Shown here piece by piece: positions 13,111 to 51,217 of a stretch of 64,000 bases of DNA. A program made the translations under genes and the position numbers. Position 1 is the first letter of the stretch. The number at the start of each line of letters is the position of its first letter. Under the pieces are notes generated by a model, which saw only the letters and a program-made list of their open reading frames with translations, made no database searches and was not told the DNA's origin. Source of the DNA: Patescibacteria group bacterium (lineage in GTDB: Bacteria > Patescibacteriota > Minisyncoccia > Phycocordibacterales > UBA9973); the NCBI GenBank assembly GCA_040384805.1, contig JAZKIP010000004.1, positions 10,255 through 74,254 of the forward strand, read 5' to 3'.

Positions 13111-13111
13111 C

Positions 13112-22288: not shown

Positions 22289-22363
22289 GGTCCCGTCGTT
22301 CAATGGATAGGACGTAACTTTGCGGAAGTTATGATGCAGGTTCGATTCCTGCCGGGATCACCA
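22289..22363 (+). tRNA. tRNA-Arg (anticodon read as GCG; encoded CCA)
   Basis: GGTCCCGTCGTTCAATGGATAGGACGTAACTTTGCGGAAGTTATGATGCAGGTTCGATTCCTGCCGGGATCACCA. Acceptor GGTCCCG/CGGGATC (one G-U), D-stem GTTC/GGAC, anticodon stem TAACT/AGTTA with loop TTGCGGA, T-arm GCAGG-TTCGATT-CCTGC. Confidence 0.75.
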
Positions 22364-23973: not shown

Positions 23974-23988
23974 ATAAATTATTATGTC

Positions 23989-24219
23989 TTAATTTTTAAC
24001 TTTTTGCAAAAATCTTTTCCTCTCATCATCAATTGATACTCCTTCAGCGACCAATCGGAGCCGTATTTTCTGCAAGATATCAGTAAAACCGGAGATATTT
24101 TCTATCTCCTCATCTGAAAATATATTCGGTGTTTGATTGTCTGAATCAGTATCCATAATCAAACCTCGAGTTTTAACCGCCGGCGGTTCTTGTGGGTACA
24201 ACCAGACGGTTAATCTCAA
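23989..24219 (-). CDS. Small acidic hypothetical protein (possible recombination directionality factor or regulator)
   Basis: Immediately upstream of the integrase on the same strand. No motif. Confidence 0.3.
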   Translation of the reverse strand: MRLTVWLYPQEPPAVKTRGLIMDTDSDNQTPNIFSDEEIENISGFTDILQKIRLRLVAEGVSIDDERKRFLQKVKN

Positions 24220-24282
24220 AAGGTATGATATGAGAATATCAAAAGACCACCCGAACGAGGGTTACACTAATTTCCTATTAAA

Positions 24283-25434: not shown

Positions 25435-25644
25435 TTCTTTTTGAATATCTTTCAGTTCTTTGGCTTGAACGTCAGTATTGGTAGTGATAACTAGATTAAA
25501 AATTGAAAGTCCGATATGGACTGAAGGTTTATCTGCTAAATAATTTCATTTCTCCGATACTTATTTTAACTAACGGATACCATTTACTCATTTCTGAAAT
25601 CCAAGTGCTAGGCTCACACAGTCGTGCGCAGTACGAGGAGCTTA

Positions 25645-25669
25645 AAAACCACCTGTTCAAGTGGTTTTT
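25645..25669 (-). terminator. Terminator hairpin AAAAACCAC-CTGTTCAA-GTGGTTTTT downstream of the 746-aa gene
   Basis: Stem with A/T flanks directly 3' (minus strand) of the stop at 25700. Confidence 0.55.
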
Positions 25670-25699
25670 AATTTAATCTCATGTAAAACTTAATAAGTC

Positions 25700-27940: not shown

Positions 27941-28419
27941 TATATAATTTATAAGTAATTTGTCAAATAAAATATTATTTCTTGGAATTTATACCCACCA
28001 GTCCAGTTTTATGTAGCTGCATGAAGGGGTTCAAAGTGATATACTGAAACCAGTAGAAATAACCTTACGTGGTAATGAACCAAGAAGTTCTATCACGATC
28101 AGCATCACCCGTTAGAAAAAGAGCTGCTCGATAAGAGTGGCCTTTTTCTTTTGGTGATTCCGAAGAAGATACCTGTGTATCTTCTGTGCAGGAATCGAAG
28201 ACCTTTTCCATATGAATTTATGAATGGAAAAGGTTTACTGGTCATGTAGTGACCGATACGCGTACTCGCGGTCCTGCCGGGATCACATTTTTGGACAAAG
28301 AGAGGTTTATTCGAACTCATTTAATGGAGAAAGCAACCAGTATCATCTTAGTTGAGGGTTAAACTCATTCTGTTAGGTAAGTCTATGTATTATAGATACT
28401 ATCTGATATTCATATATAT

Positions 28420-29115
28420 ATGAATCTTGAAAGGCAATTCAGCCTAAATAATAAGGCATCAAATCACTTAGAAAAAGGCATTAATCCTATCACGGTTTGT
28501 ATTGGCGATAATTCTAATCATGATATTGATTATTTGTTTACTAAATTCAAGGAAAATAAAAAAACTCAGAATATAAAATACGCAGCATCAAGCGATTATT
28601 ACAAGAAGGAAAATATAATAATTGATTTATCTGGTTATGCAATATCGGAAGGTAATGAAAAAAATAAGTATTCTGAAGAGTATTATAATTGTATTGGAAT
28701 GGCAATAATTGGAATTGATAAAAAAACTAATAAAAATATATCTATTTTAACTCATAAATTTCCTGCTGTTTTCTTGCAGTCGGATAGTCTTGAGAAAAAT
28801 TTTATAACGCAACTCAAAGATCTTGTGTCTCGTTGTAAGCTAGGGACACTTGATGCAGTGATTTTTGGAGGAGATAAAAGTGATGGCAATAGTTTAAAGG
28901 AATACCTAGAAGCAATAAATACTATCAATAAAATATCGAAACCAATTTTAGGATTTGAGCCTACTATTTCTGCCGCGCCAAAATATGACGGAGAAACTAG
29001 TGTTTATTTGGATACAGAAAATCGACGCCTATATGTGAATATCCCTTTCCATAAAGATTCAAAAATTTACGATGATTCGAAACCTTCCGAGATAGAAAAA
29101 GAGTTAGACAAATAA
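28420..29115 (+). CDS. Hypothetical protein (231 aa, very AT-rich codon usage)
   Basis: Lies between the 15-bp att-like copy (28272-28286) and a degenerate second copy (29395-29421). No motif. Confidence 0.35.
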   Translation: MNLERQFSLNNKASNHLEKGINPITVCIGDNSNHDIDYLFTKFKENKKTQNIKYAASSDYYKKENIIIDLSGYAISEGNEKNKYSEEYYNCIGMAIIGIDKKTNKNISILTHKFPAVFLQSDSLEKNFITQLKDLVSRCKLGTLDAVIFGGDKSDGNSLKEYLEAINTINKISKPILGFEPTISAAPKYDGETSVYLDTENRRLYVNIPFHKDSKIYDDSKPSEIEKELDK

Positions 29116-31204: not shown

Positions 31205-32911
31205 ATGAACGATACGGATCTTAAAAAAATTCTTTTAGAGGGGGGATACATTACCGAAGAGAACGCGGCAATCGCCGAGCGATATACGAAAGCCAATCAG
31301 ACATCTCTCTATGATGCGCTCATTGATCTTGATCTTTTGAATAAGACAGTCTTCGGCGAAGCGATCGCCGAATCGTATAATGTTCCGTTTGTCGATCTTA
31401 TACCGAACGCTCCGGTAAAGTCGATCGTCTTATCGTTGCCTGAAGATATCGCAAAGAAATACCATGTTGTTCTCTGGAATAAAGGCGATGAAAAGACATA
31501 TTCCTTCGCGACGGATAATCCGGACCAGAAAGGCCTAAGAGAAGATCTCGCAAAAGCATTTCCCGATCAAGAGATTGCCGTTTATTACGGGCTTCCGAAA
31601 GATGTTACCATGATCTTCGCTCATTATCGGTTCCCGATAAAGACGCGCCTCGATAGCATTGCTGCTTCTGGAGAGGATGTCGCATCGCGGCTCTTAAAGG
31701 AAATATATGAGGAAGCACTCGTCTATAATGCGTCCGACATCCATATCGAGCCGCAAAAAGCGGATGTCCGTATCCGGTTCCGCATCGACGGCGTTCTTCA
31801 GGAAGTGACCCGTATTGCCAGAGATCTTCATACGGCAGTGATCAACCTTATCAAGGTCGATGCTGATCTGCGCATCGATGAGCATGCCTCAAGCCAGGAT
31901 GGCGCGATCCGCTATGAGAACAACGGCACGGCGACCGATTTTCGCGTTTCGATTCTTCCGACGCTTCCCGGAGAGAAAGTGGTCATGCGCATCCTTTCAA
32001 CCTATTCCCAAACGTTGGCCCTGCGCGAGCTTGGTCTTTCGTCCGGCGACGAGATGCTGATCCGCGCAAGCATCAAGAGGCCGTACGGCATGGTCTTGGT
32101 GACCGGCCCGACGGGATCGGGAAAGACGACGACGCTCTACTCGATCATCAAGGTTCTCAATACGCCGAATGTCAACATTACGACGATCGAAGATCCTGTT
32201 GAATATGAAGTCAACGGTATCAATCAGGTACAAGTGAATCCTCATGGAAATCTGACATTCGACAAGGGATTGCGCAGCATCGTTCGTCAGGATCCGAATA
32301 TTATTCTCGTCGGCGAAATTCGCGATCTTGAAACGGCCAATGTCGCCGTCAATGCGGCATTGACGGGGCATCTCCTTCTTTCGACATTTCATGCCAATGA
32401 TGCCGCCTCGACGATCCCGCGCTTGATCGATCTCGGCATTCCTCCCTTTATGATCGCCTCGACGCTCGAGCTTATCGCGACCCAGCGCCTCGTGCGTCTT
32501 ATCTGTCCGGGATGTCGCCAGAGCGTTACGCTTACGAAAGCTCAAATCGACGAGATCGCTCCTGGCGCGAGCCGTTACTTCGATGCTGATCCTGTCATCC
32601 TCTATGTCGGGAAGAAGTGCGAGGTCTGCAGCTGGACCGGCTATTTCAGCCGCCATGCGATCTTCGAAGTGATCAAAGTGACGCCCGAGCTTCAGGATAT
32701 GATCTTAACGAGTCCCTCGGCCAAGCAACTGCGGGAGCTCTCGCGTTCGCAGGGGTTCCTCTCTCTTTTTGAGAACGGGCTCCTGCTTGTGAAGCAGGGA
32801 CAGACGACTCTCGAAGAGCTTGCTCGCGTTACTGCTACTCCTGATGCTCCGGTCGGCGAAGAAAATACGAAAAATTATGCAGCCAGAAACTCGCAAAAAA
32901 CAAAAAAATAA
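31205..32911 (+). CDS. pilB: Type IV pilus assembly ATPase PilB (GspE family), second paralog in window
   Basis: N-terminal T2SE_Nter-like domain. Walker A VTGPTGSGKTTTLYS. Asp/His boxes. Tetracysteine CPGC ... CEVC. Confidence 0.9.
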   Translation: MNDTDLKKILLEGGYITEENAAIAERYTKANQTSLYDALIDLDLLNKTVFGEAIAESYNVPFVDLIPNAPVKSIVLSLPEDIAKKYHVVLWNKGDEKTYSFATDNPDQKGLREDLAKAFPDQEIAVYYGLPKDVTMIFAHYRFPIKTRLDSIAASGEDVASRLLKEIYEEALVYNASDIHIEPQKADVRIRFRIDGVLQEVTRIARDLHTAVINLIKVDADLRIDEHASSQDGAIRYENNGTATDFRVSILPTLPGEKVVMRILSTYSQTLALRELGLSSGDEMLIRASIKRPYGMVLVTGPTGSGKTTTLYSIIKVLNTPNVNITTIEDPVEYEVNGINQVQVNPHGNLTFDKGLRSIVRQDPNIILVGEIRDLETANVAVNAALTGHLLLSTFHANDAASTIPRLIDLGIPPFMIASTLELIATQRLVRLICPGCRQSVTLTKAQIDEIAPGASRYFDADPVILYVGKKCEVCSWTGYFSRHAIFEVIKVTPELQDMILTSPSAKQLRELSRSQGFLSLFENGLLLVKQGQTTLEELARVTATPDAPVGEENTKNYAARNSQKTKK

Positions 32912-33977
32912 GAATCGCTTTTTTCTCTTCGGCATTTCAACCGAAGAGAAAAACTTTTTCATTGAAAATGTAAGCCTTCTTCTTGATTCGGACATGGGGG
33001 TTTCGTATGCACTGGAGACGCTCGGATCGGAAGCGAAAACTCCCGCCATGCGGCAAGCAATCGGAAATATGAGAGACTCCCTGCTGTCCGGTTCTTCTTT
33101 CTGGAAAGCACTTGATGCGCCGAAAATCTTCCCGGCGCGCCTTATCTCGCTCGTGAAAATCGGAGAAGAAGGCGGAACGCTTGCCGAAAGCCTTAAAAGC
33201 GGCTCTCGTGAGGCCGAGAAGGAGAAAAAATTCCATGGCAAATTGCGCTCTGCGCTTATTTACCCCGGCATGGTATTCCTTGTGGCGATCGTCGTCGTTC
33301 TTGTCGCGTCATGGACGGTTCTGCCGAAGCTTACCGCTATCTTCAAGGAGAGCAACGTCGCTTTGCCTCTTGCGACGCGCATTCTGGTCGGTTTCGGGGA
33401 TCTCATGGTTGCGCGCGGCATCTATATCGTGCCCGGAGTCATTCTTGTTCTCGGCGCTCTCTATTATTTTCTCTTTCTCTTCAAGAAAACGAAATTCACC
33501 GGCGACTTTCTGCTTTTCCATACTCCCGGCTTCAAGACGATCCTTCAGACCACGGAGATCGCGCGCATGGGATACTCATGCGGGACGCTTTTGAAAGCTG
33601 GCGTATCGGTGACGACCGTTTTCGAGTCGCTTGCCGAAGGCGCGAGCCTTACGATGTATCAGAAGCTTTATATGTATATCCGCGACCGCATCCGGCAGGG
33701 GGATACGATCCAAAAAGCGATCAACTCATACCCGCACTCCCGATCGCTTATTCCGTTTCAGGTCACGAATCTCATCGGCGTAGCTGAGAAATCGGGAAAA
33801 CTTTCCGAGACTTTTACGCGTATCGGCGGATTGTATGAAGACAAATCCGATACGTTTACCAAAAATATCGGAACGATCATAGAGCCCCTGATCGTCATCG
33901 TGGTCGGCCTTGTAGTTGCGGGCGTCGTCTTTGCGATCATTACGCCGATTTATTCATTAACGACCGCCATTGCCTGA
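32877..33977 (+). CDS. pilC: Type IV pilus inner-membrane platform protein PilC (GspF family)
   Basis: Two T2SSF-like repeats with TM helices. Start chosen at ATG 32877 (MQPETRKK), overlapping the pilB end. The ORF track starts at 32820. Confidence 0.8.
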   Translation: MQPETRKKQKNKNRFFLFGISTEEKNFFIENVSLLLDSDMGVSYALETLGSEAKTPAMRQAIGNMRDSLLSGSSFWKALDAPKIFPARLISLVKIGEEGGTLAESLKSGSREAEKEKKFHGKLRSALIYPGMVFLVAIVVVLVASWTVLPKLTAIFKESNVALPLATRILVGFGDLMVARGIYIVPGVILVLGALYYFLFLFKKTKFTGDFLLFHTPGFKTILQTTEIARMGYSCGTLLKAGVSVTTVFESLAEGASLTMYQKLYMYIRDRIRQGDTIQKAINSYPHSRSLIPFQVTNLIGVAEKSGKLSETFTRIGGLYEDKSDTFTKNIGTIIEPLIVIVVGLVVAGVVFAIITPIYSLTTAIA

Positions 33978-36039: not shown

Positions 36040-37947
36040 ATGAGATCATTTAAAACATCTTCCATACTCATTCTGACAGCTATCGTTTTAGTTGTTGGTA
36101 TCTTTATGACGCTTTCGATCGGGGAAAAGACCGACACGGAGCAGCGCGAAGCGCTCCAGTTGCGGGCGGAGATCGCAGCCAAAGCGATCAGAAGCGAGGA
36201 TATCTTGAACTTATCGGGAACGACTGCCGATATCGATTCTCCTGTCTATGTGAATCTCAAAAATATCATGCAGGCTCTCAAGGGTGTCCGTCCCGATATC
36301 CGGTTCGTTTATCTGATGGGATACTCTGGTGGGGAAAAGCTTTTCTTTTATATTGATTCGGAGGACCCCCGCTCTCCAGACTATTCGACGCCCGGAGATA
36401 TATATGAAGACACTACGCCTCAAGAGCTCGACGGTTTTAAAAACGGACAGGCTTTCGTGGAAGGTCCTCTTCAGGACGAGTGGGGAACATGGGTGAGCGC
36501 CTTCGCTCCTGTTAAAGACGAGAATGGCACGACGATCGCTCTTTTGGGCATGGATGTTAACGCATCCTTGTGGAATTATGTCGTTTTTGAAAAAGAAATT
36601 CCTCCCTTGCTTATAACCGCATTCTTGATCATTCTTCTTTTGTCGTATCTTTACTTTGCTCAACGTACCGATATATATATCCAGAGGATTAAAAAAAGCG
36701 AAGCGATCGCCGATATTGAGCGCAATCGGCTGCGCAGCTTGTATGAGATAGGGAATAACCAGCATGAAAGCATCGCCGAGCAGTTTCGTTCCGCATTGAA
36801 AGTCGGCAACACGACCCTTGAAACACGCATGGCGCTGATCAATCGCATTATCGGCGATGAGTTTACGGTTCTCTATGTGGTTGCGCCGTCAGATAGCATT
36901 GATGAGGGAGACCGCTTCTCGCTTAAGGAGACATACTGCGACATTACTGTCCGCAAGGACGATGTCGTTGCGATCAGCGCCATGAGCATTTCCGAATACA
37001 AGGCTCACGCTTGCTATTCGAAATTCGGACTTGAATCATATATCGGAGTGCCGATCAAGGTCAACGGGGAACTCTTCGGTACGCTCACATTCTCTGCGCC
37101 CGATCCGCACCGTCCCGAATTTTCCGAAAGCGATAAGGACTTCGTCCGCTTGATGGGCGCGTGGGTGTCCGCGACGCTCGAACGGGCCGAAGTCGACAAG
37201 ATGAAATCCGAATTCGTATCCCTTGCGTCGCATCAGCTCAATACGCCGCTCTCGACCATCAACTGGTTCGTCGATCTCCTGACAACGGATGAAAAAGAGG
37301 CATTGTCTCCCGAACAGAAAAAATACGTCACCGGCATAGGGGAGGCGAGTACTCGTATGGTCGATCTTGTGGATGCTCTTTTGAACGTATCGCGGATCGA
37401 GATGGGAACCTTCGCCGTTGCTCCCGTTCCGGTCCGACTCGACGAGGTTGCCGAGAGCTTGCTTTCAGAGCTTGATCATCAGATCAAGGAGAAAAAGCTC
37501 TTTGTAACGAAGGATTTTGATCCGGGAATCCCTCCGATTCCGGCCGATCCGAGCCTTATTCGGATCGTATTCCAGAACCTTCTGACAAATGCCATCAAGT
37601 ACAATATCGACGGAGGAAAGCTTGATATTCGAATCATTCAAAAACCGGAGTATAAAGACATGGTCTATTGCGAGATTGCCGATACGGGCCTCGGCGTTCC
37701 GAAGAAAGACCAATCACGGATTTTCCAGAAGCTTTTCCGGGCGGATAACGCCAAGATGAAGATCACCGACGGCAATGGCTTGGGCCTCTATATCGTCAAA
37801 TCAATTATAGAGTCGGCCGGCGGCAAGATCTGGTTTGCCTCCGAGGAAAACAAGGGAACAATCTTCTCATTTGTCTTGCCGCTTTCCGGAATGAAAGCCA
37901 GATCGGGTTCTAAGGCCCTCGTATCGGGAGAAAAGCACGAGATGTAG
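36040..37947 (+). CDS. Sensor histidine kinase (two TM segments, extracytoplasmic sensor domain, HisKA + HATPase_c)
   Basis: H-box FVSLASHQLNTPLSTI. N-box LLTNAIKYN. G-boxes DTGLGV and GNGLGLYIVKSIIESAGGKIW. Confidence 0.85.
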   Translation: MRSFKTSSILILTAIVLVVGIFMTLSIGEKTDTEQREALQLRAEIAAKAIRSEDILNLSGTTADIDSPVYVNLKNIMQALKGVRPDIRFVYLMGYSGGEKLFFYIDSEDPRSPDYSTPGDIYEDTTPQELDGFKNGQAFVEGPLQDEWGTWVSAFAPVKDENGTTIALLGMDVNASLWNYVVFEKEIPPLLITAFLIILLLSYLYFAQRTDIYIQRIKKSEAIADIERNRLRSLYEIGNNQHESIAEQFRSALKVGNTTLETRMALINRIIGDEFTVLYVVAPSDSIDEGDRFSLKETYCDITVRKDDVVAISAMSISEYKAHACYSKFGLESYIGVPIKVNGELFGTLTFSAPDPHRPEFSESDKDFVRLMGAWVSATLERAEVDKMKSEFVSLASHQLNTPLSTINWFVDLLTTDEKEALSPEQKKYVTGIGEASTRMVDLVDALLNVSRIEMGTFAVAPVPVRLDEVAESLLSELDHQIKEKKLFVTKDFDPGIPPIPADPSLIRIVFQNLLTNAIKYNIDGGKLDIRIIQKPEYKDMVYCEIADTGLGVPKKDQSRIFQKLFRADNAKMKITDGNGLGLYIVKSIIESAGGKIWFASEENKGTIFSFVLPLSGMKARSGSKALVSGEKHEM

Positions 37948-38133: not shown

Positions 38134-38544
38134 ATGAAAAACAACACTAAAATACTTTATGGAATTATCGGTTTGCTGATTGGCGTCATTATTGGAGGAA
38201 GCGCAGTTTCTTTTCATCATCGGAGAGGGGATAGTCGGGAGTATGCATCTGAAAGCGGAACGCATCGCATGCCGGATGGAACGCTCATGAGCAATAGCGG
38301 AAGCCATATGGAGACCATGATGGGAGATATGATGGCGGAGCTTGAAGGTAAAACAGGAGATGCTTTTGATAAAGCATTCCTTGAAGAAATGATCGTCCAC
38401 CATGAAGGCGCAGTCGAGATGGCAAAAGCCGTCCTTGAAAATTCAAAACAGCCGGAGCTTATAAAATTAGCCACTAATATAATTTCTACTCAAACCAGAG
38501 AGATTGAAACCATGCGTGAATGGCAGGCAGCATGGTTTAAGTGA
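38134..38544 (+). CDS. DUF305 family protein (four-helix, metal-stress associated), signal/TM N-terminus
   Basis: FLEEMIVHHEGAVEMAKAVL ... TREIETMREW matches the DUF305 motif MIxHHxGA(I/V)xMA. Confidence 0.65.
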   Translation: MKNNTKILYGIIGLLIGVIIGGSAVSFHHRRGDSREYASESGTHRMPDGTLMSNSGSHMETMMGDMMAELEGKTGDAFDKAFLEEMIVHHEGAVEMAKAVLENSKQPELIKLATNIISTQTREIETMREWQAAWFK

Positions 38545-38582: not shown

Positions 38583-40265
38583 CTATGAGAGAAACACATC
38601 CTCTTCTTTTGTGGGTAAAAATTGTGATTCCTCATTTTTTTGCACTTTATAACGTATTGCATATTCAACAAGAGCCTGTTTTGTAAGCATATATGATGCA
38701 AGGGCATGCGGATCCTTCAGGTCCTCGTTCTGTATCTGGATTCCCTGGGTTTTCTTCAATTCCTCTAGAAATCTCTTTTTTGCAGAGTAGATCAGACTTT
38801 TGTTAGAATCGGGGGAATTTTCTTCTTTCATTTTTTTCTCCAGTTCTTTTAAGGTTTCCGACAGCTGTGAGAAAAAATCCGGATTTGACAGCATCCAGAA
38901 TTTCCTATGGCTTTCCATGTAGTTTATGAAATAGTCTTCAAATGTTTCATTGTCTGCATTTATCATTTCTTCGGTTATCGGCAGCAGCGCGTAGCTGTCA
39001 CTGTTGATATCCTCATTCTTATACAGGCCCAATTCGACGAATGCTTCTGCAAGCGCGCCGTATAGAGTGTCTCCATCTTTGAAAGGTTGATAATAGAAGC
39101 TTTTTTGCCGCAAGAGATTGTTATCTACCAGTGTTTCAGGAGCTGCCATTCCGGCTACGATAATTTTGGATTCTTCCAATGCCCTCTTGTAAAGATCTGC
39201 TTCTTGCGGAGTCGTATTGGCGATAGCTCTTTGCAAATTCCCCAGTTCGCTTTCCAGTATCTCCGCGTCCGTCTGCGAATTTTTTTCTTGGTTGGAACGC
39301 GCAGGTTTTTTCTGAATAGGATCTTCCATGGTTGTCGACTCTGGAGTTTCCTCCCCTGTCATTGATTCTATGATTTGTTCTCCAAGCTCCCTGTGTGATT
39401 TCGCAAAGTCTCCGTTATTCAGGGTAATGTGCTTTGCCTTCTTGAGAGTTTCAACCGCGCTTTCATATTTGTCATTGCCTTCTTTTTCTTTCGCGAACGA
39501 TTCCAGTCTTTCAAGGATTGATCCCCGATTTTCATCATCAAGAAGAACAACAATAACATTGCTTTTCTTCTCTATGGCCTTTGCTATCTCCTGCCCGCCG
39601 ACCACGTCGAATTTATCAAGTACGTCATGTGTCAAAAGAACAACCGTCTGCCCTTTTTCAGGAATGCCGGCGTTGATCGACTCTTTCCATCGGTTTCCCA
39701 ATGGCAGGCCTTTGGCAAGTTCAGCACCTCCTGAAGACGAGAATTCTTCCTCGTCGATAGTTATATTCGTTTCCTGATTATCAAACCATACGAGCATGCC
39801 TATGGAGCGAAGAGCAAGATGCAATTTTCGAGCCATCTCTTCGTTACGGCGCGAATATGAGACCATTACTTCGCGAGACGGGAGTTTTGCAAGCAAGGGA
39901 TGCATGTCCGCTATTCCTTCCGCTATCGCTTCCACTTCCTCAAGACTATCTTTTCTCTTCTTATATGTAATCGTCTTTTCCGTTCCTTTCTGGCTGGCTT
40001 CAGTGTCGAGTGTCTTTTGCAGGGATTCGACTCCTGCTTTTAGGTTCTGAAGCGACGCCCTCCTTTCAGACACATTAAGAGGCTCCATACTAACCTCTGA
40101 CTGCTCGGCCTTATTATAAACAGAACCACCGTCCTTATTATTTAAATTGAATTTTCTTCTTTCTATCATATATGTAATTATATCACGGTGATTTTTAAAA
40201 TATAGTCCGCCTGGATCTTGGGAATTGAAACCCCTAAGAGTGAAAAAAGATTTCAAACTTGCCAT
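38583..40265 (-). CDS. 560-aa hypothetical protein with a central TIR-like domain
   Basis: REVMVSYSRRNEEMARKLHLALRSIGMLVWFDNQ ... GNRWKESINAGIPEKGQTVVLLTHDVLD follows the TIR layout (betaA xxSYSxxD, alphaA A..L..L, betaB VWxD, W...I). TIR-like part at about 39515-39863. Flanks are Lys/Glu-rich with no motif. Confidence 0.5.
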   Translation of the reverse strand: MASLKSFFTLRGFNSQDPGGLYFKNHRDIITYMIERRKFNLNNKDGGSVYNKAEQSEVSMEPLNVSERRASLQNLKAGVESLQKTLDTEASQKGTEKTITYKKRKDSLEEVEAIAEGIADMHPLLAKLPSREVMVSYSRRNEEMARKLHLALRSIGMLVWFDNQETNITIDEEEFSSSGGAELAKGLPLGNRWKESINAGIPEKGQTVVLLTHDVLDKFDVVGGQEIAKAIEKKSNVIVVLLDDENRGSILERLESFAKEKEGNDKYESAVETLKKAKHITLNNGDFAKSHRELGEQIIESMTGEETPESTTMEDPIQKKPARSNQEKNSQTDAEILESELGNLQRAIANTTPQEADLYKRALEESKIIVAGMAAPETLVDNNLLRQKSFYYQPFKDGDTLYGALAEAFVELGLYKNEDINSDSYALLPITEEMINADNETFEDYFINYMESHRKFWMLSNPDFFSQLSETLKELEKKMKEENSPDSNKSLIYSAKKRFLEELKKTQGIQIQNEDLKDPHALASYMLTKQALVEYAIRYKVQKNEESQFLPTKEEDVFLS

Positions 40266-40452
40266 ATATTGAATACTTTATACTTCGTGGTATAATAATT
40301 ACGTGTTTAATATAAACTCAATTTTCAATAACCCCCCAAAATCAGCCAAAGAAGAAAAGGGGAGAACCGATACTAAAGGAAAAACGGAGAGAAAAGAAAA
40401 ATCACTGTGGTTTAAGGTCGCGGCCGGCTTTTCAAAATATCTTACCGATTGA

Positions 40453-40788
40453 ATGATGAAAGCATCAGGCAGACTCAAATATGCCCGGCCACTTTCCATT
40501 GTGCGAAATCATAAAGCTGAGATAGACCAAAATAAAGATGCGAATAAAATGCTCTTTCCTGAAAACGGAGGGCCGACACAAGAGCGTCTGCATGCTTCGG
40601 CGTTGAAACTAGCTCGGCAATTCGGCTGGCAGGAAACGAAGCCGCTCGAAGAGTATGTGCGGAATAACCCGAATCTTGGGCCGAAAATTAAGTTCTTTAT
40701 TGAAATGTCGATCCACATCAAAAAATTCCGCGCAAAAGGGAAAGAACTCCTCGGTGTTATTCAAGAGGGGAATAAAGCTGCCGCTTGA
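40453..40788 (+). CDS. Hypothetical protein
   Basis: 111-aa ORF with no motif. Confidence 0.3.
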   Translation: MMKASGRLKYARPLSIVRNHKAEIDQNKDANKMLFPENGGPTQERLHASALKLARQFGWQETKPLEEYVRNNPNLGPKIKFFIEMSIHIKKFRAKGKELLGVIQEGNKAAA

Positions 40789-40810: not shown

Positions 40811-41797
40811 ATGAAGACCGGAAATCAGATGGTTTTTTTAAATACGTTTGAGCCACCTGAATGGTACGGCGCAGACAGAAGGGAGCTTTGCGATAAGATT
40901 CTGAAATGGATACCTGATTATATATTGCAGAGGGATTTAGTGAATGAGGGGAATATTAAAATTTTCTTCCTTTCAGGAGGAGTTTCTTCGATCGTCTGCA
41001 GGATTGAAACCGATTCAGAGAAATATGTCCTGAAAATTCTGACATCGCATGATGTGACCGAAGGCGAAGCCCTGTTTCTGAGAGAATGGTCACGTATCGG
41101 CATTCGCACCCCGAGGATCGTTGACGAGGGAATTTCCCTCGGACATGCGTATCTTTTGATGGAACACATCGAGGCCAAAACGTTGTCGCAAAAGTTCACG
41201 CCGCAGGAATTGCTCGAAAAGAAAATCTTTTTCACGCTTGGCCGAACGCTTGCAATAATGCATACTCCCACAGCCCGCGGCTGCGGGGAGATAAAGGGAG
41301 GCACAGTGCAGTTCAATGATGCCCGTACGTGGTGGCAGGGTTCGAAGATTAAAGAAGAGATCGCCTATGCCATGGAAAACAAGCTTATACCGGAAACTTT
41401 GATTGATAGCCTGTCGAGCGATATAGAGGATTTTATCGGGTATATTGATACTGACAGGACGGTTTTTTGCCATAATGATTTCTCGGTTTCCCATGTCTTT
41501 GCGACTGAACCTTTGACCGTGATAGATCCGAATCCGATCATCCATCATCCGCTGTTTGATGTAGCTCGCAGCATTCTTACTATTGCCAATCTAAGCATTG
41601 ATCTATCCGATGGGACAAGAATGTTTCTTGAGGGATATAAGGAACAATCATCCTGTTCTTTGACATATTTAAAATCGGCTCTCTTGCTGCAGGCATGTCT
41701 CAAGTTCTCATATTGGCACAGGGCTGGCAAATCGAAAAGCATCGAAAAAGCCCGGAAGTTTTTAGATAATTATGAAAAGATTTTATCCCCGTTGTGA
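40811..41797 (+). CDS. Aminoglycoside phosphotransferase (APH)/choline-kinase-like small-molecule kinase
   Basis: Kinase N-lobe (IVCRIETDSEKYVLKIL). Catalytic loop CHNDFSVSHVF and DFG-equivalent VIDPN. Confidence 0.7.
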   Translation: MKTGNQMVFLNTFEPPEWYGADRRELCDKILKWIPDYILQRDLVNEGNIKIFFLSGGVSSIVCRIETDSEKYVLKILTSHDVTEGEALFLREWSRIGIRTPRIVDEGISLGHAYLLMEHIEAKTLSQKFTPQELLEKKIFFTLGRTLAIMHTPTARGCGEIKGGTVQFNDARTWWQGSKIKEEIAYAMENKLIPETLIDSLSSDIEDFIGYIDTDRTVFCHNDFSVSHVFATEPLTVIDPNPIIHHPLFDVARSILTIANLSIDLSDGTRMFLEGYKEQSSCSLTYLKSALLLQACLKFSYWHRAGKSKSIEKARKFLDNYEKILSPL

Positions 41798-44457: not shown

Positions 44458-45087
44458 ATGGAAACATTAACCAGAGGACTTGACAATCTGTGGACTGCAG
44501 ACGGTCTGACAGATCCCGAAAAGAACCTTTTGCAGAAATTCATTGCCGAAGTGGCCCGCAAAGCAAAAGGCTTCATATCAGAACTCTTCGGCTTTGACAA
44601 AACTCGTACGGCGAAAAGCCGGCCCGAAGAATTTATCATCAGCAAGGAATCGGTTGAAGAGGATTTCTTCCAGCCGATCCGTGAACGGGAAGCAAGCGCC
44701 GGAAATATCGTTCCGTGGCTTGATGAAGATATCTGGAAATTCTGGAAAGGAAAGAAAGTTCCTGGCTTCCTCGTGGACATTATATTTTCGATCTATCGCT
44801 TTTTAAAGAACCTTACTCACAGACAGATTCTGGAGGAAGGAGAAAAGCAGGAAATTAAGAAAATATATTCCTATGCCCAGGCCAAGGAAATAATCCGCAC
44901 GGCAATATGGGCCGGCGACGTTGACCAGAAGAACACAGGCGTATTCGCTTATTTTAAGGTAGATGCAGGTGGACCTTTGTACCGCTTCAGCGCCTTCCGT
45001 CGCGGCGGCGGCCAGCTCCGTGTATTCGTGGATGGGGTGGGTCTGGACGGCGTGTGGTATGTCGGCCTTGGTGTGTGCTTCGGCTGA
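44458..45087 (+). CDS. DGR target protein (209 aa) with C-terminal variable region
   Basis: The C-terminal 35 codons (YRFSAFRRGGGQLRVFVDGVGLDGVWYVGLGVCFG) are the VR counterpart of the TR at 45408-45510. Confidence 0.8.
   Translation: METLTRGLDNLWTADGLTDPEKNLLQKFIAEVARKAKGFISELFGFDKTRTAKSRPEEFIISKESVEEDFFQPIREREASAGNIVPWLDEDIWKFWKGKKVPGFLVDIIFSIYRFLKNLTHRQILEEGEKQEIKKIYSYAQAKEIIRTAIWAGDVDQKNTGVFAYFKVDAGGPLYRFSAFRRGGGQLRVFVDGVGLDGVWYVGLGVCFG
44981..45083 (+). repeat. DGR variable repeat (VR)
   Basis: 103 bp aligning with the TR. About 20 mismatches, all but one at positions where the TR has adenine. Confidence 0.85.
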
Positions 45088-45407
45088 TTATTTTTCCCTT
45101 AACAAAAAAAGGACTCTTGAATACTTTGTATCTTGGGTCCTTTTGTTTTTTATTTTTAATATTGTAAAATATCCATGTGATGCAGCATTTCGCTTTGGCT
45201 ACGGCTCGGGCGACTGCTCATAAGATAATACTCTCGGCAGAATCCGGGTGGATACGTCTTCCCGGAGAGATCGTTTATTTTCTTCATATAAAAAGATTTT
45301 TGTAGGTGGAATCAATTCTCGGGCTTCGACGCCCGGCATGCAATTCAGCACGTTCTCAGAGAGCGCATTTAGAACGGCAGTGATCAAGATGATTGTTTTC
45401 ACAAACG

Positions 45408-45510
45408 ACCGCTTCAACGCCTTCCGTAACGACGACGGCCAGCTCAATGTCAACGTGAATAAGGTGGATCTGGACAACGAGTGGAATGTCGGCAATGGTG
45501 TGTGCTTCGG
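45408..45510 (+). repeat. DGR template repeat (TR), non-coding, rich in AAC/AAT triplets
   Basis: ACCGCTTCAACGCCTTCCGTAACGACGACGGCCAGCTCAATGTCAACGTGAATAAGGTGGATCTGGACAACGAGTGGAATGTCGGCAATGGTGTGTGCTTCGG. Same orientation as VR and RT. Confidence 0.85.
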
Positions 45511-45533
45511 AAACACGATCTTTCTCCCGCATA

Positions 45534-45923
45534 TTATCTCGCGGGAGTTTTCTTTTCCAATCCCTTCTTCCAGCCACCCAACATCCGGCCGATCTCGTCG
45601 AGCGATGTCGAGAGATCGGCGTATTTTTGATTCGAAACGCACTTGTTTTCCCAAGCAATCTGAAGGAAAAATTTGACTCCGTCGAGCTTCGATATAGCAA
45701 TCGTCAGGCGGGGAGCCTTCTGCTCGGGAGACAAATAGAGAGACACGAATATATTCTCAAGGAGTTCAAGAAAATATCCTTCAACTTTGCCGCCTAAAGT
45801 ATAGCGGTATGTTTTCGGAATATCTGCCGTAATGGTAAACCACAGCGTATAGGCCTTTTTGGCTTTGATGAGCACCGATGCCTGTGTGACAGGCTTTGCA
45901 CTATAAGAAGTGAGTGTCGTCAT
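45534..45923 (-). CDS. avd: Accessory variability determinant (Avd)-like four-helix-bundle protein, encoded on the opposite strand between TR and RT
   Basis: ...KAKKAYTLWFTITADIPKTYRYTLGGKVEGYFLELLENIFVSLYL ... SLDEIGRMLGGWKKGL resembles the Avd / TIGR02436 four-helix-bundle family (compare EVGRILGSWI of Bordetella phage Avd). Confidence 0.65.
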   Translation of the reverse strand: MTTLTSYSAKPVTQASVLIKAKKAYTLWFTITADIPKTYRYTLGGKVEGYFLELLENIFVSLYLSPEQKAPRLTIAISKLDGVKFFLQIAWENKCVSNQKYADLSTSLDEIGRMLGGWKKGLEKKTPAR

Positions 45924-45976
45924 TCGTTGTGTTGTTTACTTGTATAATAGTTTATTTATCTGTAATATATTATAAC

Positions 45977-46962
45977 ATGGAAATATTTAAAAAGCAATAC
46001 CTCAAGATTGTTACCGTCGAAAATCTTATTGAGGCATGGAACGAGTTTCTTCGCGGAAAGGGAAATCGCAGCGATGTCGCGGCTTTTCAGGCCCGTTTGT
46101 CGGACAATATCTTTGATTTGTGGCGCGAGCTTGCCGACAGGACATATATTCACAGCGGATACGAGGCGTTCAATGTCTCCGATCCGAAGCCGCGGATTAT
46201 TCACAAAGCTCTTGTTCGCGATCGTCTCCTTCATCATCTCCTCTATCGGGAACTCTATGCCTATTTCGACCGGAAATTTATCTTTGATTCGTATTCGTGC
46301 CGCATGAGCAAGGGAACCCATCGGGCAATAGACCGTTTCCGAGAATATGCCGGGAAGGTATCGAAGAATAATACGAAAACATGCTGGATCTTGAAGTGCG
46401 ATATCAGAAAATTCTTCGCAAGCATCGATCATGCTATCTTGAAGCGCATTCTTGCCGAGCATATCGCCGACCCCGATTTCCTCTCTCTTTTCGGGGTTGT
46501 GATCGACAGCTTCGAAACGAAAGGAGTGCTCGGTGTCGGGCTTCCTCTCGGCAATCTGACGAGTCAGCTTCTCGTCAATGTCTATATGAATGAATTCGAC
46601 CAGTTCGTCAAAAGAAAACTGAAAGTGAAATATATTGTATCCGCTATGCGGATGACTTTGTCTTTTTAAGCGACGATAAGACGTATCTCGAATCGCTCAT
46701 ACCGGAAATACGGGCATTCTTGGAAGAAGAACTGAAGCTCTCCATCCATGAGAAAAAGCTTTTCCTTCGGACTCTTGCCTCGGGTATGGATTTCCTCGGC
46801 TGGGTGCACTTTCCTCATCATCGGAAACTGAGAACTGCGACAAAGAAAAGAATGCTGCGCAGGCTGGCGCAGTCTCCCGAGCCTCAGGCGGTCAATTCCT
46901 ATCGGGGGATGCTTCGTCACGGAAATACATACAAGATCCAAAAGCAAGCGGGATTAACATAG
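45977..46962 (+). CDS. DGR reverse transcriptase, reading frame broken by a 1-nt frameshift near 46638-46643
   Basis: N-terminus LIEAWNEFLRGKGNRSDVAAFQARL ... KPRIIHKALVRDRLLHH and motifs GLPLGNLTSQLLVNVYMNEFD. The catalytic RYADDFVFL appears only after shifting frame at GTATCC(C)GCTATGCGGATGAC. The downstream frame continues to 46962. Confidence 0.8.
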
Positions 46963-47044: not shown

Positions 47045-50000
47045 ATGGAGCAAATTGAATACTTGCGGAGCAGGATCTTTGCAAAGATACGCTCTTTTTC
47101 ATATCGCTTTGGTTTTATCCTCCTCTTTTTATTATTGTTTCCTTGGGCCAATCTCCATGCGGCAGACCGCAGCGCTCCCTTTCTTTTTGGAGAAACTCTT
47201 GATCCCGGAATGGAATCGGAGCCTTGCGGGCCGATGGATGAGAACTGCTTTCCGGGCCATCTTGGAACTCAAGACGAGAATAATCATCTGATCAATAATC
47301 CGACAGGTCTTAATTTCGTAGGTCCGGGAGTAACTGCTACGCAAGATAGCAACGGGTGGATCATCGTGACAGTTCCCGGAGGGCTGACATCTCTCAACGG
47401 GATCTCGGTCGGCAGCCAGACGATAAGCGCAGGGTCGTCGGGAACGGATTTCAACATCTCATCATCCGGATCGGGCCATATATTCAATATCCCGAGTGCC
47501 TCGTCACTCGGCCGCGGTCTTTTAACCCCGGCTGACTGGGCTATTTTCAATGGCAAACAGGATTCTCTCGGATTCACTCCTCTTGATCCGGCGAACAATC
47601 TTGCCGATCTTGCATCAACAGCTCTCGCAAGAACGAACCTCGGCCTCGGAAGTGCTGCGACAGTAAGCCTGACAACGCTCCTTCAATCATCAAATAATCT
47701 CTCTGATATCGCATCGACCGGCACGGCCCGCGCCAATCTGGGTCTTGGCACTATGGCGACGGAGAATTCAAGCGCGTTTCTTCGCTCGGCTAATAATCTC
47801 TCCGACCTCGGATCAGCAACAACTGCGCGTACGAATTTAGGATTAGGCACGGCAGCTCTGGCGAATCTCTCATCTCTCCTTCAAGCGTCGAATAACTTAT
47901 CAGACCTTTCCAATATCATAATCACCCGCGCAAATCTTGGATTGGGAACTGCCGCGACGGCGAACTCATCGGCATTTCTTCAAGGATCCAATAATCTTTC
48001 CGATCTCGGTTCATCATCTACCGCGCGCACGAATCTCGGTCTCGGAACTCTTGCCACCCTTTCGACTATCAACAATTCGCACTGGTCGGGAACCCCTCTG
48101 TCGGTTTCAAACGGAGGAACGGGAGCCGGAACTGCAAATGACGCTCTTAATGCATTTCTTCCGGCTCAAGGTCCGCACGCGGGAGACTACCTGACAACAG
48201 ATGGCGCGACTGCGTCATGGGGCGATCTTCCGTCGCCCGCGTGGGGATCGATCGCCGGAACCTTATCGGATCAGAGCGACATGCAGGCGGTCTTTGACGC
48301 GAAGGAGGATGTAATCATTCCCGGCTTAACGAGCCACTATTTCCGAGGCGATAAAACATGGCAGACTCTTAACAAAGCGTCTGTAGGCCTTGGTAATACT
48401 GAAAATACAGCTCTCTCGACATGGGCGGGAAGCGCGAACATAACGGCGCTCGGGACTATCGCATCAGGTACGTGGAACGCGAGCCCGATCGCTGATCTCT
48501 ATGTTTCGAGCGCTTCGTCATGGAATGCCAAGCAAAATGCGCTCGGATTCACCCCTCTTGATGCGGCGAGCAATCTCTCTGATCTTTCCGATGCAAGTGA
48601 TGCCCGTGCAAATCTTGGCCTTGGTACTATCGTGACCGAGGATTCAGACGCATTTCTTCAGGCATCAAACGATCTTTCCGATCTTGTCCACGTCCCAACC
48701 GCTCGGTCTAACTTGGGATTAGGGACGGCTGCTCTTGAAAGCGCGGATTCTTTTCTTCTTGCGGCAGGCAACCTCTCGGATCTTTCATCCCTATCGGACG
48801 CAAGGAACAATCTCGGTTTGGGATTGCTTGCGATTTTAAGTACGGTGAATGATAGCAACTGGTCGGGAACTCCTCTTGCGATCGCAAACGGCGGAACAGG
48901 AGCGGGAACCGCAGAGGATGCACGTAACGCCATCCTCCCGCTGCAAAGTTCCCATGCGGGGGAGTATCTGACGACGGATGGAACCCACGCATCATGGGAT
49001 GAGCCGCCCGCGCCCGCGTGGGGATCGATTGCCGGGACTTTGTCCGATCAAGCGGATCTTCAGGCCTCTCTTGATGAAAAAGAGGATGTGATTGACGCAG
49101 GATCGGCAAGCCAGTATTTCCGCGGGGACAAGACATGGCAGACTCTCAACAAGGCTGCCGTTGGTTTGGGGAATGTGGAAAATACAGCTCTCTCAACATG
49201 GACGGGAAGTACGAATATAACGACGCTCGGTACGGTTACCGGAGGCACATGGCACGGAAGCGCGATCGATGATGCGTATATTGGAAGCGCTGCCGCATGG
49301 AATGCCAAACAAGCTTCTCTCGGATTCACGCCGCTTAATCCTGCGAATAATTTGTCTGAAATTGTTTCAGCACCGACGGCGCGTACGAATTTAGGATTGG
49401 GTACGGCGGCAACTTTAAATACAAATGCTTTTTTGCAACCCGTCAATAATCTCTCTGAACTCTCTTCGCCATCTACTGCCCGCACAAATCTCGGTCTCGG
49501 TAGTGCAGCTACAGTTAATACAAATTCACTTTTCCAAGTTTCTAATAATTTATCTGAAATTGCGGTACCTTCAACTGCTCGTACCAACCTCGGCCTTGGC
49601 ACTGCCGCAACGGCAAATTTGACTTCTCTTCTTCTAGCATCAAACAATCTTTCTGACCTCGGATCAGCAACAACCGCGCGCACGAATCTAGGCCTCGGAT
49701 CTCTCGCCACTCTTTCATCGGTCAATAATTCGAACTGGTCGGGGACAGGGCTCTCGATTGCAAACGGGGGAACAGGGGTAACAACTGCAAATGACGCTCT
49801 TAATGCATTTCTACCTTCGCAGGGAATAAATTCCGGAAAATATCTGACAACCAACGGTACCAATGCATCATGGGCCGATATAGTTCCGGGCGGAGTTACC
49901 TCTGTCGGGCTTTCTCTTCCCTCCGTGTTCTCCGTCTCGGGTTCTCCGGTAACATCAAGCGGAGTATTATCGGCGACGCTTGCAACTCAAAGCGCGAATA

Positions 50001-51217
50001 CTGCATTCTTGGGTCCTGCGACAGGAGGCGCAGCAGCGCCCGGATTCCGCTCTCTTGTGATCGCGGATCTCCCGACAGCAATACCGAATGCCAATCTTGC
50101 CAATTCATCGCTTTCTCTTGCGATCGGCACCTCGGGAACCGATGCCGCATGGTCGGCAGGGTCGGTATCTCTCGGCGGAACGGCGACGCTTAATATCCCG
50201 GATGCCTCGGCAACGAACAGGGGACTTGTCACCACAGGAGTCCAGACGGTCGCGGGAGTCAAGACGTTCTCATCGGCGCCGAAGCTCTCATCGCTCACCG
50301 CAGGATCGGTCCTCTTCGTCGGATCGGACAAATCTATATCCGAGAATAATACGAAGCTCTTTTGGGATAATTCCACCAATCGCTTGGGGATCGGAGTGAA
50401 CAATCCCTCGGGAGTTCTTCATACGAGCGGGGCGGTTTATTTCGCCGGTCTTGCGACTGATAATTCGATCGGTCTTGCGGGAGCCTTATGCCTTGACGCT
50501 TCAAACCAGCTCAAGAAGCTCACGGGCCTCGGGTCATGCATCGTTTCGTCGCGCAAGTACAAGAAGGACATCGAGACCTTGTCATACCCTGATCGCTCGA
50601 ATCTCGACACCGTCATGGCTCTTCATCCGGTTTCCTACACGAGTATCTTCGACGAGAGCAAACGCATCGGATTCGTCGCCGAGGAGGTTCTTTCTATTGA
50701 TCCGCGCCTCATCGCGTTTGAGCCGGGAAGCACGACCGATCCGCGCGGCGTCCGCTATGAGGAGACAACGGCCCTTCTTGCGGCGGCACTCCAGGAACTT
50801 AATCTCGAGGTCAAAACGCTTTCCGAGCCGTGGACGGCTCAGGAAAGCGGAAGCTTCGCGGGGAAATTTACAACGCGCCTAAGCGAATGGCTGTCCGATG
50901 CGGGGAACGGCATACGGACAATTGCGGCCGATACGTTTCGCGCTCGCGAAGCGGTCGTCGAGCGCATCTGCGTCGGCACCGAGGAGAACAAGACATGCAT
51001 CACGAAAGACGATCTTGATCGCCTCCTTGCCAATCAGGCAGCTCCGCAGATGACACCCTTTTCAAATCCATCACCCGAATCGGACGAAGGTACCATGCCC
51101 GAAGAGCCATCACAAAATGCGCCTCCGGAAGAGGATATTCTTCCCGGGGAGAGCGAAGATCTTACCAATAACGCCCTTCCTGAAGCGGCCGATGCTATTC
51201 CCGTATCTGAAAGCTAG
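47045..51217 (+). CDS. 1390-aa secreted fibre protein built from phage-tail-fibre-like repeats with a C-terminal peptidase-S74-type intramolecular chaperone domain
   Basis: Signal peptide FGFILLFLLLFPWANLHA. More than 20 copies of NNLSDL(x)S(x)TARTNLGLGTAA and three copies of IANGGTGAGTA(x)DA(x)NA ... W(x)GSIAGTLSDQ modules (internal duplication of about 800 bp at 48.1-48.9 kb versus 48.9-49.7 kb). C-terminal SSRKYKKDIETL ... LHPVSYTS ... GFVAEEVLSIDPRLIAF at about 50540-50830 matches the tail-spike/endosialidase chaperone domain. Confidence 0.7.
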   Translation: MEQIEYLRSRIFAKIRSFSYRFGFILLFLLLFPWANLHAADRSAPFLFGETLDPGMESEPCGPMDENCFPGHLGTQDENNHLINNPTGLNFVGPGVTATQDSNGWIIVTVPGGLTSLNGISVGSQTISAGSSGTDFNISSSGSGHIFNIPSASSLGRGLLTPADWAIFNGKQDSLGFTPLDPANNLADLASTALARTNLGLGSAATVSLTTLLQSSNNLSDIASTGTARANLGLGTMATENSSAFLRSANNLSDLGSATTARTNLGLGTAALANLSSLLQASNNLSDLSNIIITRANLGLGTAATANSSAFLQGSNNLSDLGSSSTARTNLGLGTLATLSTINNSHWSGTPLSVSNGGTGAGTANDALNAFLPAQGPHAGDYLTTDGATASWGDLPSPAWGSIAGTLSDQSDMQAVFDAKEDVIIPGLTSHYFRGDKTWQTLNKASVGLGNTENTALSTWAGSANITALGTIASGTWNASPIADLYVSSASSWNAKQNALGFTPLDAASNLSDLSDASDARANLGLGTIVTEDSDAFLQASNDLSDLVHVPTARSNLGLGTAALESADSFLLAAGNLSDLSSLSDARNNLGLGLLAILSTVNDSNWSGTPLAIANGGTGAGTAEDARNAILPLQSSHAGEYLTTDGTHASWDEPPAPAWGSIAGTLSDQADLQASLDEKEDVIDAGSASQYFRGDKTWQTLNKAAVGLGNVENTALSTWTGSTNITTLGTVTGGTWHGSAIDDAYIGSAAAWNAKQASLGFTPLNPANNLSEIVSAPTARTNLGLGTAATLNTNAFLQPVNNLSELSSPSTARTNLGLGSAATVNTNSLFQVSNNLSEIAVPSTARTNLGLGTAATANLTSLLLASNNLSDLGSATTARTNLGLGSLATLSSVNNSNWSGTGLSIANGGTGVTTANDALNAFLPSQGINSGKYLTTNGTNASWADIVPGGVTSVGLSLPSVFSVSGSPVTSSGVLSATLATQSANTAFLGPATGGAAAPGFRSLVIADLPTAIPNANLANSSLSLAIGTSGTDAAWSAGSVSLGGTATLNIPDASATNRGLVTTGVQTVAGVKTFSSAPKLSSLTAGSVLFVGSDKSISENNTKLFWDNSTNRLGIGVNNPSGVLHTSGAVYFAGLATDNSIGLAGALCLDASNQLKKLTGLGSCIVSSRKYKKDIETLSYPDRSNLDTVMALHPVSYTSIFDESKRIGFVAEEVLSIDPRLIAFEPGSTTDPRGVRYEETTALLAAALQELNLEVKTLSEPWTAQESGSFAGKFTTRLSEWLSDAGNGIRTIAADTFRAREAVVERICVGTEENKTCITKDDLDRLLANQAAPQMTPFSNPSPESDEGTMPEEPSQNAPPEEDILPGESEDLTNNALPEAADAIPVSES

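Follow-up and report, generated by a model that had tools for sequence, protein, structure and literature searches.

The 64-kb window analysed here, a stretch of 64,000 nucleotides from the 177-kb contig JAZKIP010000004.1 of a Patescibacteria group bacterium, encodes on its minus strand a 560-residue TIR protein (38583..40265). Comparison of its two halves points to an origin of the protein in the internal duplication of one module, a helical hairpin joined to a TIR domain. One copy, TIR1, has the marks of a catalytic-type TIR, and the other, TIR2, appears to be a degenerate pseudo-TIR that sequence searches miss. We read the protein as a self-contained, self-regulated nicotinamide adenine dinucleotide (NAD+) glycohydrolase in which TIR1 would be the enzyme, the pseudo-TIR2 would complete its BE interface, and NAD+ depletion would be gated by a trigger; the whole of this chain is given a probability of about 45%. 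What is new is the hidden duplication and the restriction of the family to Patescibacteria. The TIR assignment is ordinary and already in GenBank, where MES2930462.1, a 528-aa version of the protein starting at M33 (40167-40169), is labelled 'TIR domain-containing protein' from a Patescibacteria group bacterium. The features used in the argument are as follows.

38583..40265, minus strand: whole open reading frame (ORF) including the stop codon, 560 aa (ORF list).
40292..40321, minus strand: match to a sigma-70-like promoter (TTGAGT-18-TATTAT), a short way upstream of the ATG and by consensus only.
40086..40265, minus strand: N-terminus, residues 1-60, predicted disordered and unconserved, with a predicted local distance difference test score (pLDDT) of about 30 (AlphaFold2 (AF2) model; alignment).
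39909..40073, minus strand: hairpin 1, residues 65-119, with helices 65-93 and 99-119 and pLDDT >90 (AF2).
39357..39875, minus strand: TIR1, residues 131-303, from betaA (132-136) through alphaE (291-303) (TIR_2 match; PDB relatives; fold hits).
39693..39764, minus strand: disordered BB-loop insertion, residues 168-191, with disorder at 173-191 in the full-length model (AF2 model; family alignment).
39588..39590, minus strand: codon for E226, which lies in 'GGQEI' and is the putative catalytic glutamate, invariant in 13/13 family members.
39279..39356, minus strand: inter-module linker, residues 304-329, disordered (309-330 in the full-length model) and unconserved (AF2; alignment).
39144..39278, minus strand: hairpin 2, the homologue of hairpin 1, residues 330-374, with helices 330-346 and 353-374.
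38622..39113, minus strand: TIR2, a degenerate TIR-like domain (putative pseudo-TIR), residues 385-548 (Foldseek; profile homology).

The initial annotation had described a stand-alone 560-aa protein with a central TIR-like domain. Its ORF was recovered exactly, with an ATG start, and the two peptides quoted in support were located at residues 133-164 (VMVSYSRRNEEMARKLHLALRSIGMLVWFDNQ) and 192-217 (RWKESINAGIPEKGQTVVLLTHDVLD). The Pfam search it had recommended confirmed the domain. TIR_2 (PF13676) matches residues 133-260 with an E-value of 6.7e-10 and 39.9 bits, above the curated gathering cut-off of 28, and a precomputed PF13676 match is also present in five of the eight other close homologues; the match is read as more than chance. 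The TIR is therefore real, and it merely looks central, since the C-terminal half is taken up by a second, cryptic TIR-like module. In the full-length AF2 model (pLDDT 75, predicted TM-score (pTM) 0.77), residues 132-303 take the flavodoxin-like five-strand TIR fold in the order betaA-alphaA-betaB-BB loop-alphaB-betaC-alphaC-betaD-alphaD-betaE-alphaE. Foldseek comparison of this model with the PDB placed tandem alpha/beta/alpha two-domain proteins (GlmS isomerase module) at the top and TIR domains next, among them the RPS4 TIR (prob 0.99, TMt 0.58) and the TIRs of SNC1, RPV1 and IL-18Rbeta. As the full 560-aa model served as the query, the E-values of these TIR matches are weak.

Sequence profiles were used to find the closest solved relatives of TIR1. 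A full-length phmmer search of the PDB returned nothing relevant, and the untrimmed TIR profile reached AbTIR only at an E-value of about 0.3. With the variable BB-loop insertion left out of the profile, SARM1 and AbTIR came within reach at the 1e-4 level, the NADase TIR domain of SARM1 at 1.5e-4 and AbTIR at 8e-4, followed by C. elegans TIR-1 (4e-3) and BtTir (1e-2). A check for the catalytic glutamate of TIR NADases had also been advised, and it was located at E226 on alphaC, which all 13 family members share and which hhalign places opposite the SARM1 catalytic glutamate ('HKE', E642, the counterpart of AbTir E208) with a probability of 94.5, using a SARM1 query confirmed over its first 67 residues by the PDB search result. 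The W638/E642 numbering of this query agrees with the PDB result and with the literature text (bioRxiv 10.1101/2022.05.07.491051).

The residue four positions before E226 departs from known NADase TIRs. Their WxxxE motif is incomplete here, since this position (E-4) is V/I in 13/13 members; hhalign puts a valine opposite SARM1 W638. TIR1 belongs to the TIR superfamily and, judged by its glutamate, to the catalytic-type subset; the WxxxE aromatic, another mark of that subset, it lacks. The same aromatic (AbTir W204, SARM1 W638) was found in 12/12 cyclase TIRs tested, and cyclisation needs it (bioRxiv 10.1101/2022.05.07.491051). Because it is missing, TIR1 is predicted to be a hydrolase yielding ADP-ribose (ADPR) and nicotinamide, not a cyclase. 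A phenylalanine at E-7, F219, is present in 8/13 members and might stand in for the missing aromatic.

To map conservation, mean pairwise identity was calculated for each structural element. In TIR1 it is highest in the betaA-alphaA loop YSRRN (0.81), the start of the BB loop FDNQETN (0.71) and the CC loop with the start of alphaC, HDVLDKFDVV (0.62), and falls to 0.21-0.25 over betaD, alphaD, betaE and alphaE. In TIR2 the order runs the other way, with alphaC lowest (0.12), betaE and the EE loop at 0.31-0.33 and alphaE highest (0.46); the conserved patch is the betaE-alphaE segment with the motif TQGIQ...DLKDP..LASYLLMKQAL. Five residues only are invariant in all 13 members (L211, E226, G413, Q507 and Y525), and the eight closest members share SYSRRN (136-141), F161-D162, L211-T212, D214, L216-D217-K218, G224 and E226. 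Between the conserved FDNQETN and KG(I/L)GxG motifs lies the BB-loop insertion; the stretch D162-R192 that holds it is 25-52 aa long in full-length members, mostly acidic and unconserved. Conservation is thus complementary, lying on the NAD-pocket and BB-loop face in TIR1 and on the betaE/alphaE face in TIR2. Such a pattern is expected if the E-face of TIR2 docks the BB loop of TIR1, from which we infer that the two may pair.

The C-terminal half carries no Pfam family in any of the 13 members and has no sequence match in the PDB, even at an E-value of 10. An AF2 model of this half, built alone with 13 sequences (pLDDT 86.6, pTM 0.80), has TIR domains as its top fold matches: RUN1 (prob 1.00), AtTIR, SNC1, RPP1 and Roq1 (0.99), L6 (0.96) and also RPPT. 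When the profiles of the N-terminal half (residues 60-306) and the C-terminal half (328-550) were compared by hhalign, they aligned over 177 columns with a probability of 96.5, an E-value of 9.3e-10 and a score of 69.0. The highest score among 30 column shuffles was 18.3, the reversed profile gave 13.4, and 30 shuffles of 12-column blocks reached 37.1 at most. The alignment is collinear through hairpin helix 2, the 'P(H/E)xxL' connector, betaC, betaD, betaE and alphaE, and the invariant G156 of TIR1 and G413 of TIR2 occupy corresponding positions just before betaB. The hairpin with its connector aligns by itself at a probability of 92.6 (E 4.6e-7). In hairpin 1, helix 2 and the 'EGI..PH..L' connector are conserved and homologous to hairpin 2. 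The halves are therefore detectably homologous and both adopt a TIR fold in the models. Because the two profiles align far above the shuffled controls, internal duplication of the [hairpin + TIR] module is indicated as the origin of the protein.

Missing from the second copy are SYSRRN, the catalytic glutamate and, as a gap of 43 columns, the FDNQ/BB-loop/alphaB segment, and TIR2 is classed as a putative pseudo-TIR on the ground of these losses. The linker between the modules varies from 13 to 39 aa across the family. Ahead of the first module, residues 1-60 contain no hydrophobic, signal-peptide-like stretch. The 'Lys/Glu-rich extensions of unknown function' that had been assigned to the flanks of the TIR domain did not survive this analysis: the flanks are structured, and the duplication accounts for them as a helical hairpin on one side and a second hairpin and TIR-like module on the other.

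In characterised TIR NADases a complete active site requires two TIRs joined head to tail, one contributing its BB loop and the other the E-face on which that loop docks, the BE interface (bioRxiv 10.1101/2022.05.07.491051). In the mechanism proposed here, module 1 would act as the NAD+ glycohydrolase, a role predicted from the NAD+-pocket motifs and catalytic glutamate that it has kept. Module 2 would be a pseudo-enzyme of which only the betaE/alphaE surface has been retained, and it would offer this E-face to the BB loop of TIR1, either within the same chain or between chains as head-to-tail polymers. The acidic, disordered BB-loop insertion and the flexible inter-module linker are plausible gating elements, which would hold the enzyme off until a trigger arrives. 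By analogy with SpbK, the trigger would most likely be a phage or mobile-element protein. The activated enzyme would then cleave NAD+, probably into ADPR and nicotinamide and not into a cyclic ADPR (cADPR)-isomer signal, and the depletion of NAD+ would arrest or kill the infected cell. NADase activity, the BE pairing of TIR1 with TIR2, the trigger and the role in defence are steps that we infer. Taken together, the protein is probably a self-contained NAD-destroying enzyme of conflict or defence, and its mode of action is probably that of a single-gene, abortive-infection-like NAD+ hydrolase.

Several known systems share parts of this design. SARM1 and AbTir/BtTir resemble TIR1 in the betaA 'SY.RRN' motif, the 'LS/T..xLDK' motif of the betaC-CC loop and the aligned catalytic glutamate. 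They differ in the WxxxE tryptophan, which is V/I here, in the 25-52-aa disordered BB-loop insertion and in the degenerate partner TIR fused into the same chain; in addition, the SAM and ARM domains of SARM1 are missing here, and a short hairpin stands in place of the N-terminal coiled coil. SpbK, from Bacillus subtilis ICEBs1, is a single-gene TIR NADase of abortive infection that is activated by the phage portal protein YonE. Like the protein described here it is a stand-alone gene for a TIR plus a non-catalytic region, and its operating logic is the one proposed above. Sequence and specific fold relationship between the two do not extend beyond the TIR fold (9phb prob 0.35), and SpbK itself is carried by a mobile element, places its sensor at the N-terminus ahead of a C-terminal TIR and lacks a second TIR. 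Thoeris ThsB is likewise a bacterial TIR protein that can be small and TIR-dominated; it is set apart by the absence here of ThsA and of the residue for cyclic products, and by a ThsB_TIR match below the cut-off (E 0.23).

Pairing of an active TIR with an inactive one is known for RPS4/RRS1, in which the RRS1 TIR is inactive and regulatory. The likeness lies in a catalytic-type TIR paired with a regulating, non-catalytic TIR, and 4c6t is among the best fold matches of the full model (prob 0.99). RPS4 and RRS1 are two separate plant proteins of the NLR (nucleotide-binding leucine-rich repeat) type joined through an AE interface, whereas here a single bacterial chain appears to have been built by internal duplication. 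Two TIR domains in one chain are also found in mollusc Toll receptors and in Dictyostelium TirE, whose two diverged copies were likewise missed by Pfam hidden Markov models (HMMs) (PMC4929906). These proteins are eukaryotic, have other partner domains (RCC1 repeats in TirE; leucine-rich repeats with a transmembrane segment (LRR-TM) in the Tolls) and show no sequence relationship to the protein described here. No bacterial one-chain tandem of TIR and pseudo-TIR was described in the literature searched.

The family was delimited by sequence searches. A word-indexed search of 5.8 billion clusters gave 9 proteins, and HMMER, run exhaustively over 1.84 billion representatives with a profile of the C-terminal region alone, gave only 13. 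All of these 13 have the whole architecture except P0012, a fragment without the N-terminal part, and the C-terminal region was never seen without this TIR among the family members found. Among 185,579 species-representative genomes, searched with an 8-sequence alignment, one encodes a full-length relative, a Paceibacterota metagenome-assembled genome (MAG) (L006). Members with a named source all come from Patescibacteria/Paceibacterota MAGs. No relative is encoded on viral contigs, and the TIR protein has no match in PHROGs. The family is very rare, sporadic within one phylum and restricted to Patescibacteria. A single-module ancestor in Chloroflexota was considered and rejected, as the candidates (L007, L010) proved to be giant proteins of TIR-WD40 and TIR-STAND(P-loop)-WD40 type with only the betaA motif in common with the family.

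By its layout the TIR gene is monocistronic, and its claimed position between convergent and divergent neighbours holds. A DUF305 gene (38134-38544, plus strand) converges on its 3' end across a 38-nt gap, and on the 5' side two genes diverge from it, a 111-aa ORF (40453-40788, plus strand) and an APH-type kinase gene (40811-41797, plus strand). The true start codon is uncertain (the ATG at 40265 or the M33 ATG at 40169) because conservation in the family begins only at about residue 62; the domains are unaffected. No obvious Shine-Dalgarno sequence precedes either candidate start.

Conserved partners were sought in eight independent genomic contexts: the window, L001/L006, L002, L003/L004, L005, L020, L021 and L022. 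Pfam tables of the eight loci, together with all-versus-all BLASTP, at six loci, of every ORF from 50 aa upwards in the 4 kb on either side, revealed no conserved neighbour. With the family HMM, the large unannotated neighbours were found to be unrelated to each other or to the family. Since no neighbour is conserved in the eight contexts, the TIR gene is a stand-alone unit, as had been proposed. The one protein that did recur, a class-I S-adenosylmethionine methyltransferase of L002 and L003/L004 (L003 9764-10420), was considered as a general partner and set aside. The surroundings of the homologues are chromosomal, with Fpg, RuvA, YibE_F and type IV pilus genes recurring at larger distances. 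Individual loci have neighbours that are suggestive but not conserved: in L002 a gene for the helical domain of a 5-hydroxymethyldeoxyuridine DNA kinase (HMUDK_hel; 3763-4668) lies upstream of the homologue and stops 33 nt short of it, a T2SSE ATPase gene and pilus-assembly genes of the PilM/PilO type are found near the same homologue, and in L005 a serine recombinase gene (8030-9625) is convergent and immediately downstream.

The comparisons with catalogued defence systems made in the initial annotation did not hold up. Its Thoeris/ThsB-like comparison met a ThsB_TIR score of 12.3 bits against a cut-off of 21.2, and the scan it suggested for ThsA found no SIR2, SLOG or ThsA-like partner in the window; more broadly, no SIR2, SLOG, macro, SAVED or cyclase gene lies in the 64 kb, and no ThsA-like gene in the window or the homologue loci. 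Its TIR-STING comparison is opposed by the lack of a SAVED or STING Pfam match and of a cyclase neighbour. In PADLOC, the check it had proposed, the match to a catalogued system is limited to a 36-residue piece of the TIR-SAVED model, SAVED_TIR covering residues 130-165 only, the betaA-alphaA part of the TIR. NCBIfam has nothing relevant for the TIR protein. The protein is not a component of Thoeris, CBASS or any system catalogued in PADLOC.

A number of points weigh against the reading of the protein as a self-regulated NAD+ glycohydrolase. On the enzymatic side, aromatic mutants of SARM1, L6 and ROQ1 show lowered or abolished NADase activity (bioRxiv 10.1101/2022.05.07.491051), so that the activity of TIR1, which lacks the WxxxE aromatic, might be weak or altered, and the SARM1 query used to align E226 is confirmed by the PDB result over its first 67 residues. 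On the structural side, the fold matches of TIR2 are weak (E about 0.02-0.03, TM about 0.5), SIS-type alpha/beta domains appear lower in the same list (prob 0.7-0.84), the TIR bodies compared alone between the halves give a probability of 33% (E 4.6e-4), and the alignments are shallow (8-13 sequences). The putative TIR1-TIR2 contact is deduced from one kind of evidence, conservation patterns. Concerning the context, no complete PADLOC-DB v2 model was matched and the neighbours give no relevant system; no recognisable defence island or mobile element surrounds the gene, and most of the genes around it are of a housekeeping kind (DUF305, APH-type kinase, ABC transporter, histidine kinase).

These points also feed the alternative explanations. 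If the C-terminal half were an unrelated alpha/beta sensor resembling flavodoxin-like folds, the protein would be an ordinary TIR joined to a novel sensor, and the weak Foldseek E-values (about 0.02), the scoring of SIS-type domains and the low probability for the TIR bodies would be readily understood. This is judged unlikely, because the whole-module E-value stands far above the shuffled controls, the alignment runs collinearly from the hairpin and connector to alphaE, TIRs lead the fold list (prob 0.96-1.00 against 0.7-0.84 for SIS), and G156 and G413 correspond. A non-catalytic or housekeeping role, as a tandem-TIR scaffold or regulator or as a TIR/deoxyribosyltransferase-fold enzyme for NAD or nucleotide salvage in a reduced genome, seems no likelier than the sensor. 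The chromosomal, housekeeping-like contexts, the missing WxxxE tryptophan and weak echoes of nucleoside deoxyribosyltransferases (sequence E about 0.09, fold prob 0.82) speak for it. Conservation in the protein nevertheless peaks at the glutamate and the NAD-pocket motifs, NADases are its closest solved relatives, and the family, with 13 members in 1.84 billion proteins and one genome in 185,579, is too sporadic for such a role.

Patescibacteria are mostly episymbionts, and the NADase could instead be a toxin, delivered to deplete the NAD+ of a host or of a competing bacterium. The confinement of the family to this phylum, the lack of a cognate immunity-like or partner gene, the long, disordered and variable N-terminus and the type IV pilus genes nearby in the window and in L002 (though these are common in the phylum) would suit such a weapon. 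The absence of an adjacent immunity gene counts against it as well, since NADase toxins normally need one; there is no signal peptide and no known secretion or toxin-delivery domain, a targeting signal is unlikely in an unconserved N-terminus, and the linkage to secretion genes is inconsistent. Delivery as a toxin is thus somewhat less probable still than the two preceding alternatives. Lowest of all is placed a ThsB-like signal generator, which would sense infection and make a nucleotide signal for an effector whose gene would lie at another place in the genome. Room for it is left by the presence of a catalytic-type TIR and by the span of the effector search, 64 kb of the 177-kb contig. It is opposed by the poor ThsB_TIR E-value, by the absence of SIR2, SLOG, macro or ThsA-like genes from the window and the eight homologue contexts, and by V/I in 13/13 members at the position where all tested cADPR-isomer-producing TIRs have the aromatic.

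The self-regulated NAD+ glycohydrolase therefore remains the preferred reading. A further and more doubtful proposal, held only tentatively, is that one polypeptide combines both BE halves, a catalytic TIR with an expanded BB loop and an E-face pseudo-TIR, as a Patescibacteria-specific immune effector or a weapon between episymbiont and host. Immunity in bacteria, plants and animals relies centrally on TIR NADases, and the assembly and silencing of their composite active sites are under study. If true, an active TIR fused to its degenerate partner would be a compact model of an asymmetric active-site TIR pair, and the one-chain pair would represent a means of building and gating a TIR NADase that has not been described before. 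It would also mean that 'unknown' extensions of TIR proteins can hide TIR copies invisible to sequence searches. The genomes of Patescibacteria are tiny, their cofactors usually have to come from hosts, and few classical defence systems are known from them. A lineage-restricted NAD+-destroying enzyme among them would raise the testable question of how episymbionts handle phage or hosts.

Other loci of the window were recorded alongside. The type IV pilus/pseudopilin cluster, a typical surface machinery of Patescibacteria, comprises a T2SSE ATPase gene (31205-32911), a platform protein gene (32820-33977) and several N-terminally methylated pilin-like ORFs up to 36036, and is followed by a GAF-histidine kinase gene (36040-37947). 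A Fic/DOC gene (11573-12721, minus strand) is followed by three large ORFs without a Pfam match (13112-14839, 15218-16264 and 16492-18276) in low-GC DNA; a toxin or conflict locus is one possible reading of 11573-18276. Next to a gene for a large serine recombinase (22300-23973, minus strand) lies a markedly low-GC stretch at 24-28 kb, in which the GC fraction is 0.31-0.35 against 0.40-0.52 on either side and which holds large ORFs without a Pfam match (24283-25434, 25700-27940); the region 22300-29000 looks like an integrated element.

A diversity-generating retroelement (DGR) occupies 44458-46669. Its candidate target gene (44458-45087, plus strand) ends in ...VGLDGVWYVGLGVCFG, a C-terminus that holds the variable repeat (44981-45083). 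The template repeat (45408-45510) is 81% identical to the variable repeat, with mismatches almost all on template adenines. A bAvd gene follows (45534-45923, minus strand; PF22296, 3.7e-13), and the reverse transcriptase starts at 45914 on the plus strand (RVT_1 1.2e-11; PADLOC RT 7.7e-34); its ORF of 251 aa covers positions 8-150 of the 205 of RVT_1, which may reflect a truncation or a frameshift. The DGR is closely followed downstream by 47045-51217, which encodes a 1390-aa protein with strong phage tail-fibre profile matches (phrog_2282, 6.4e-74) and a Peptidase_S74 intramolecular-chaperone domain, which could be an episymbiont surface fibre or adhesin or a prophage remnant.

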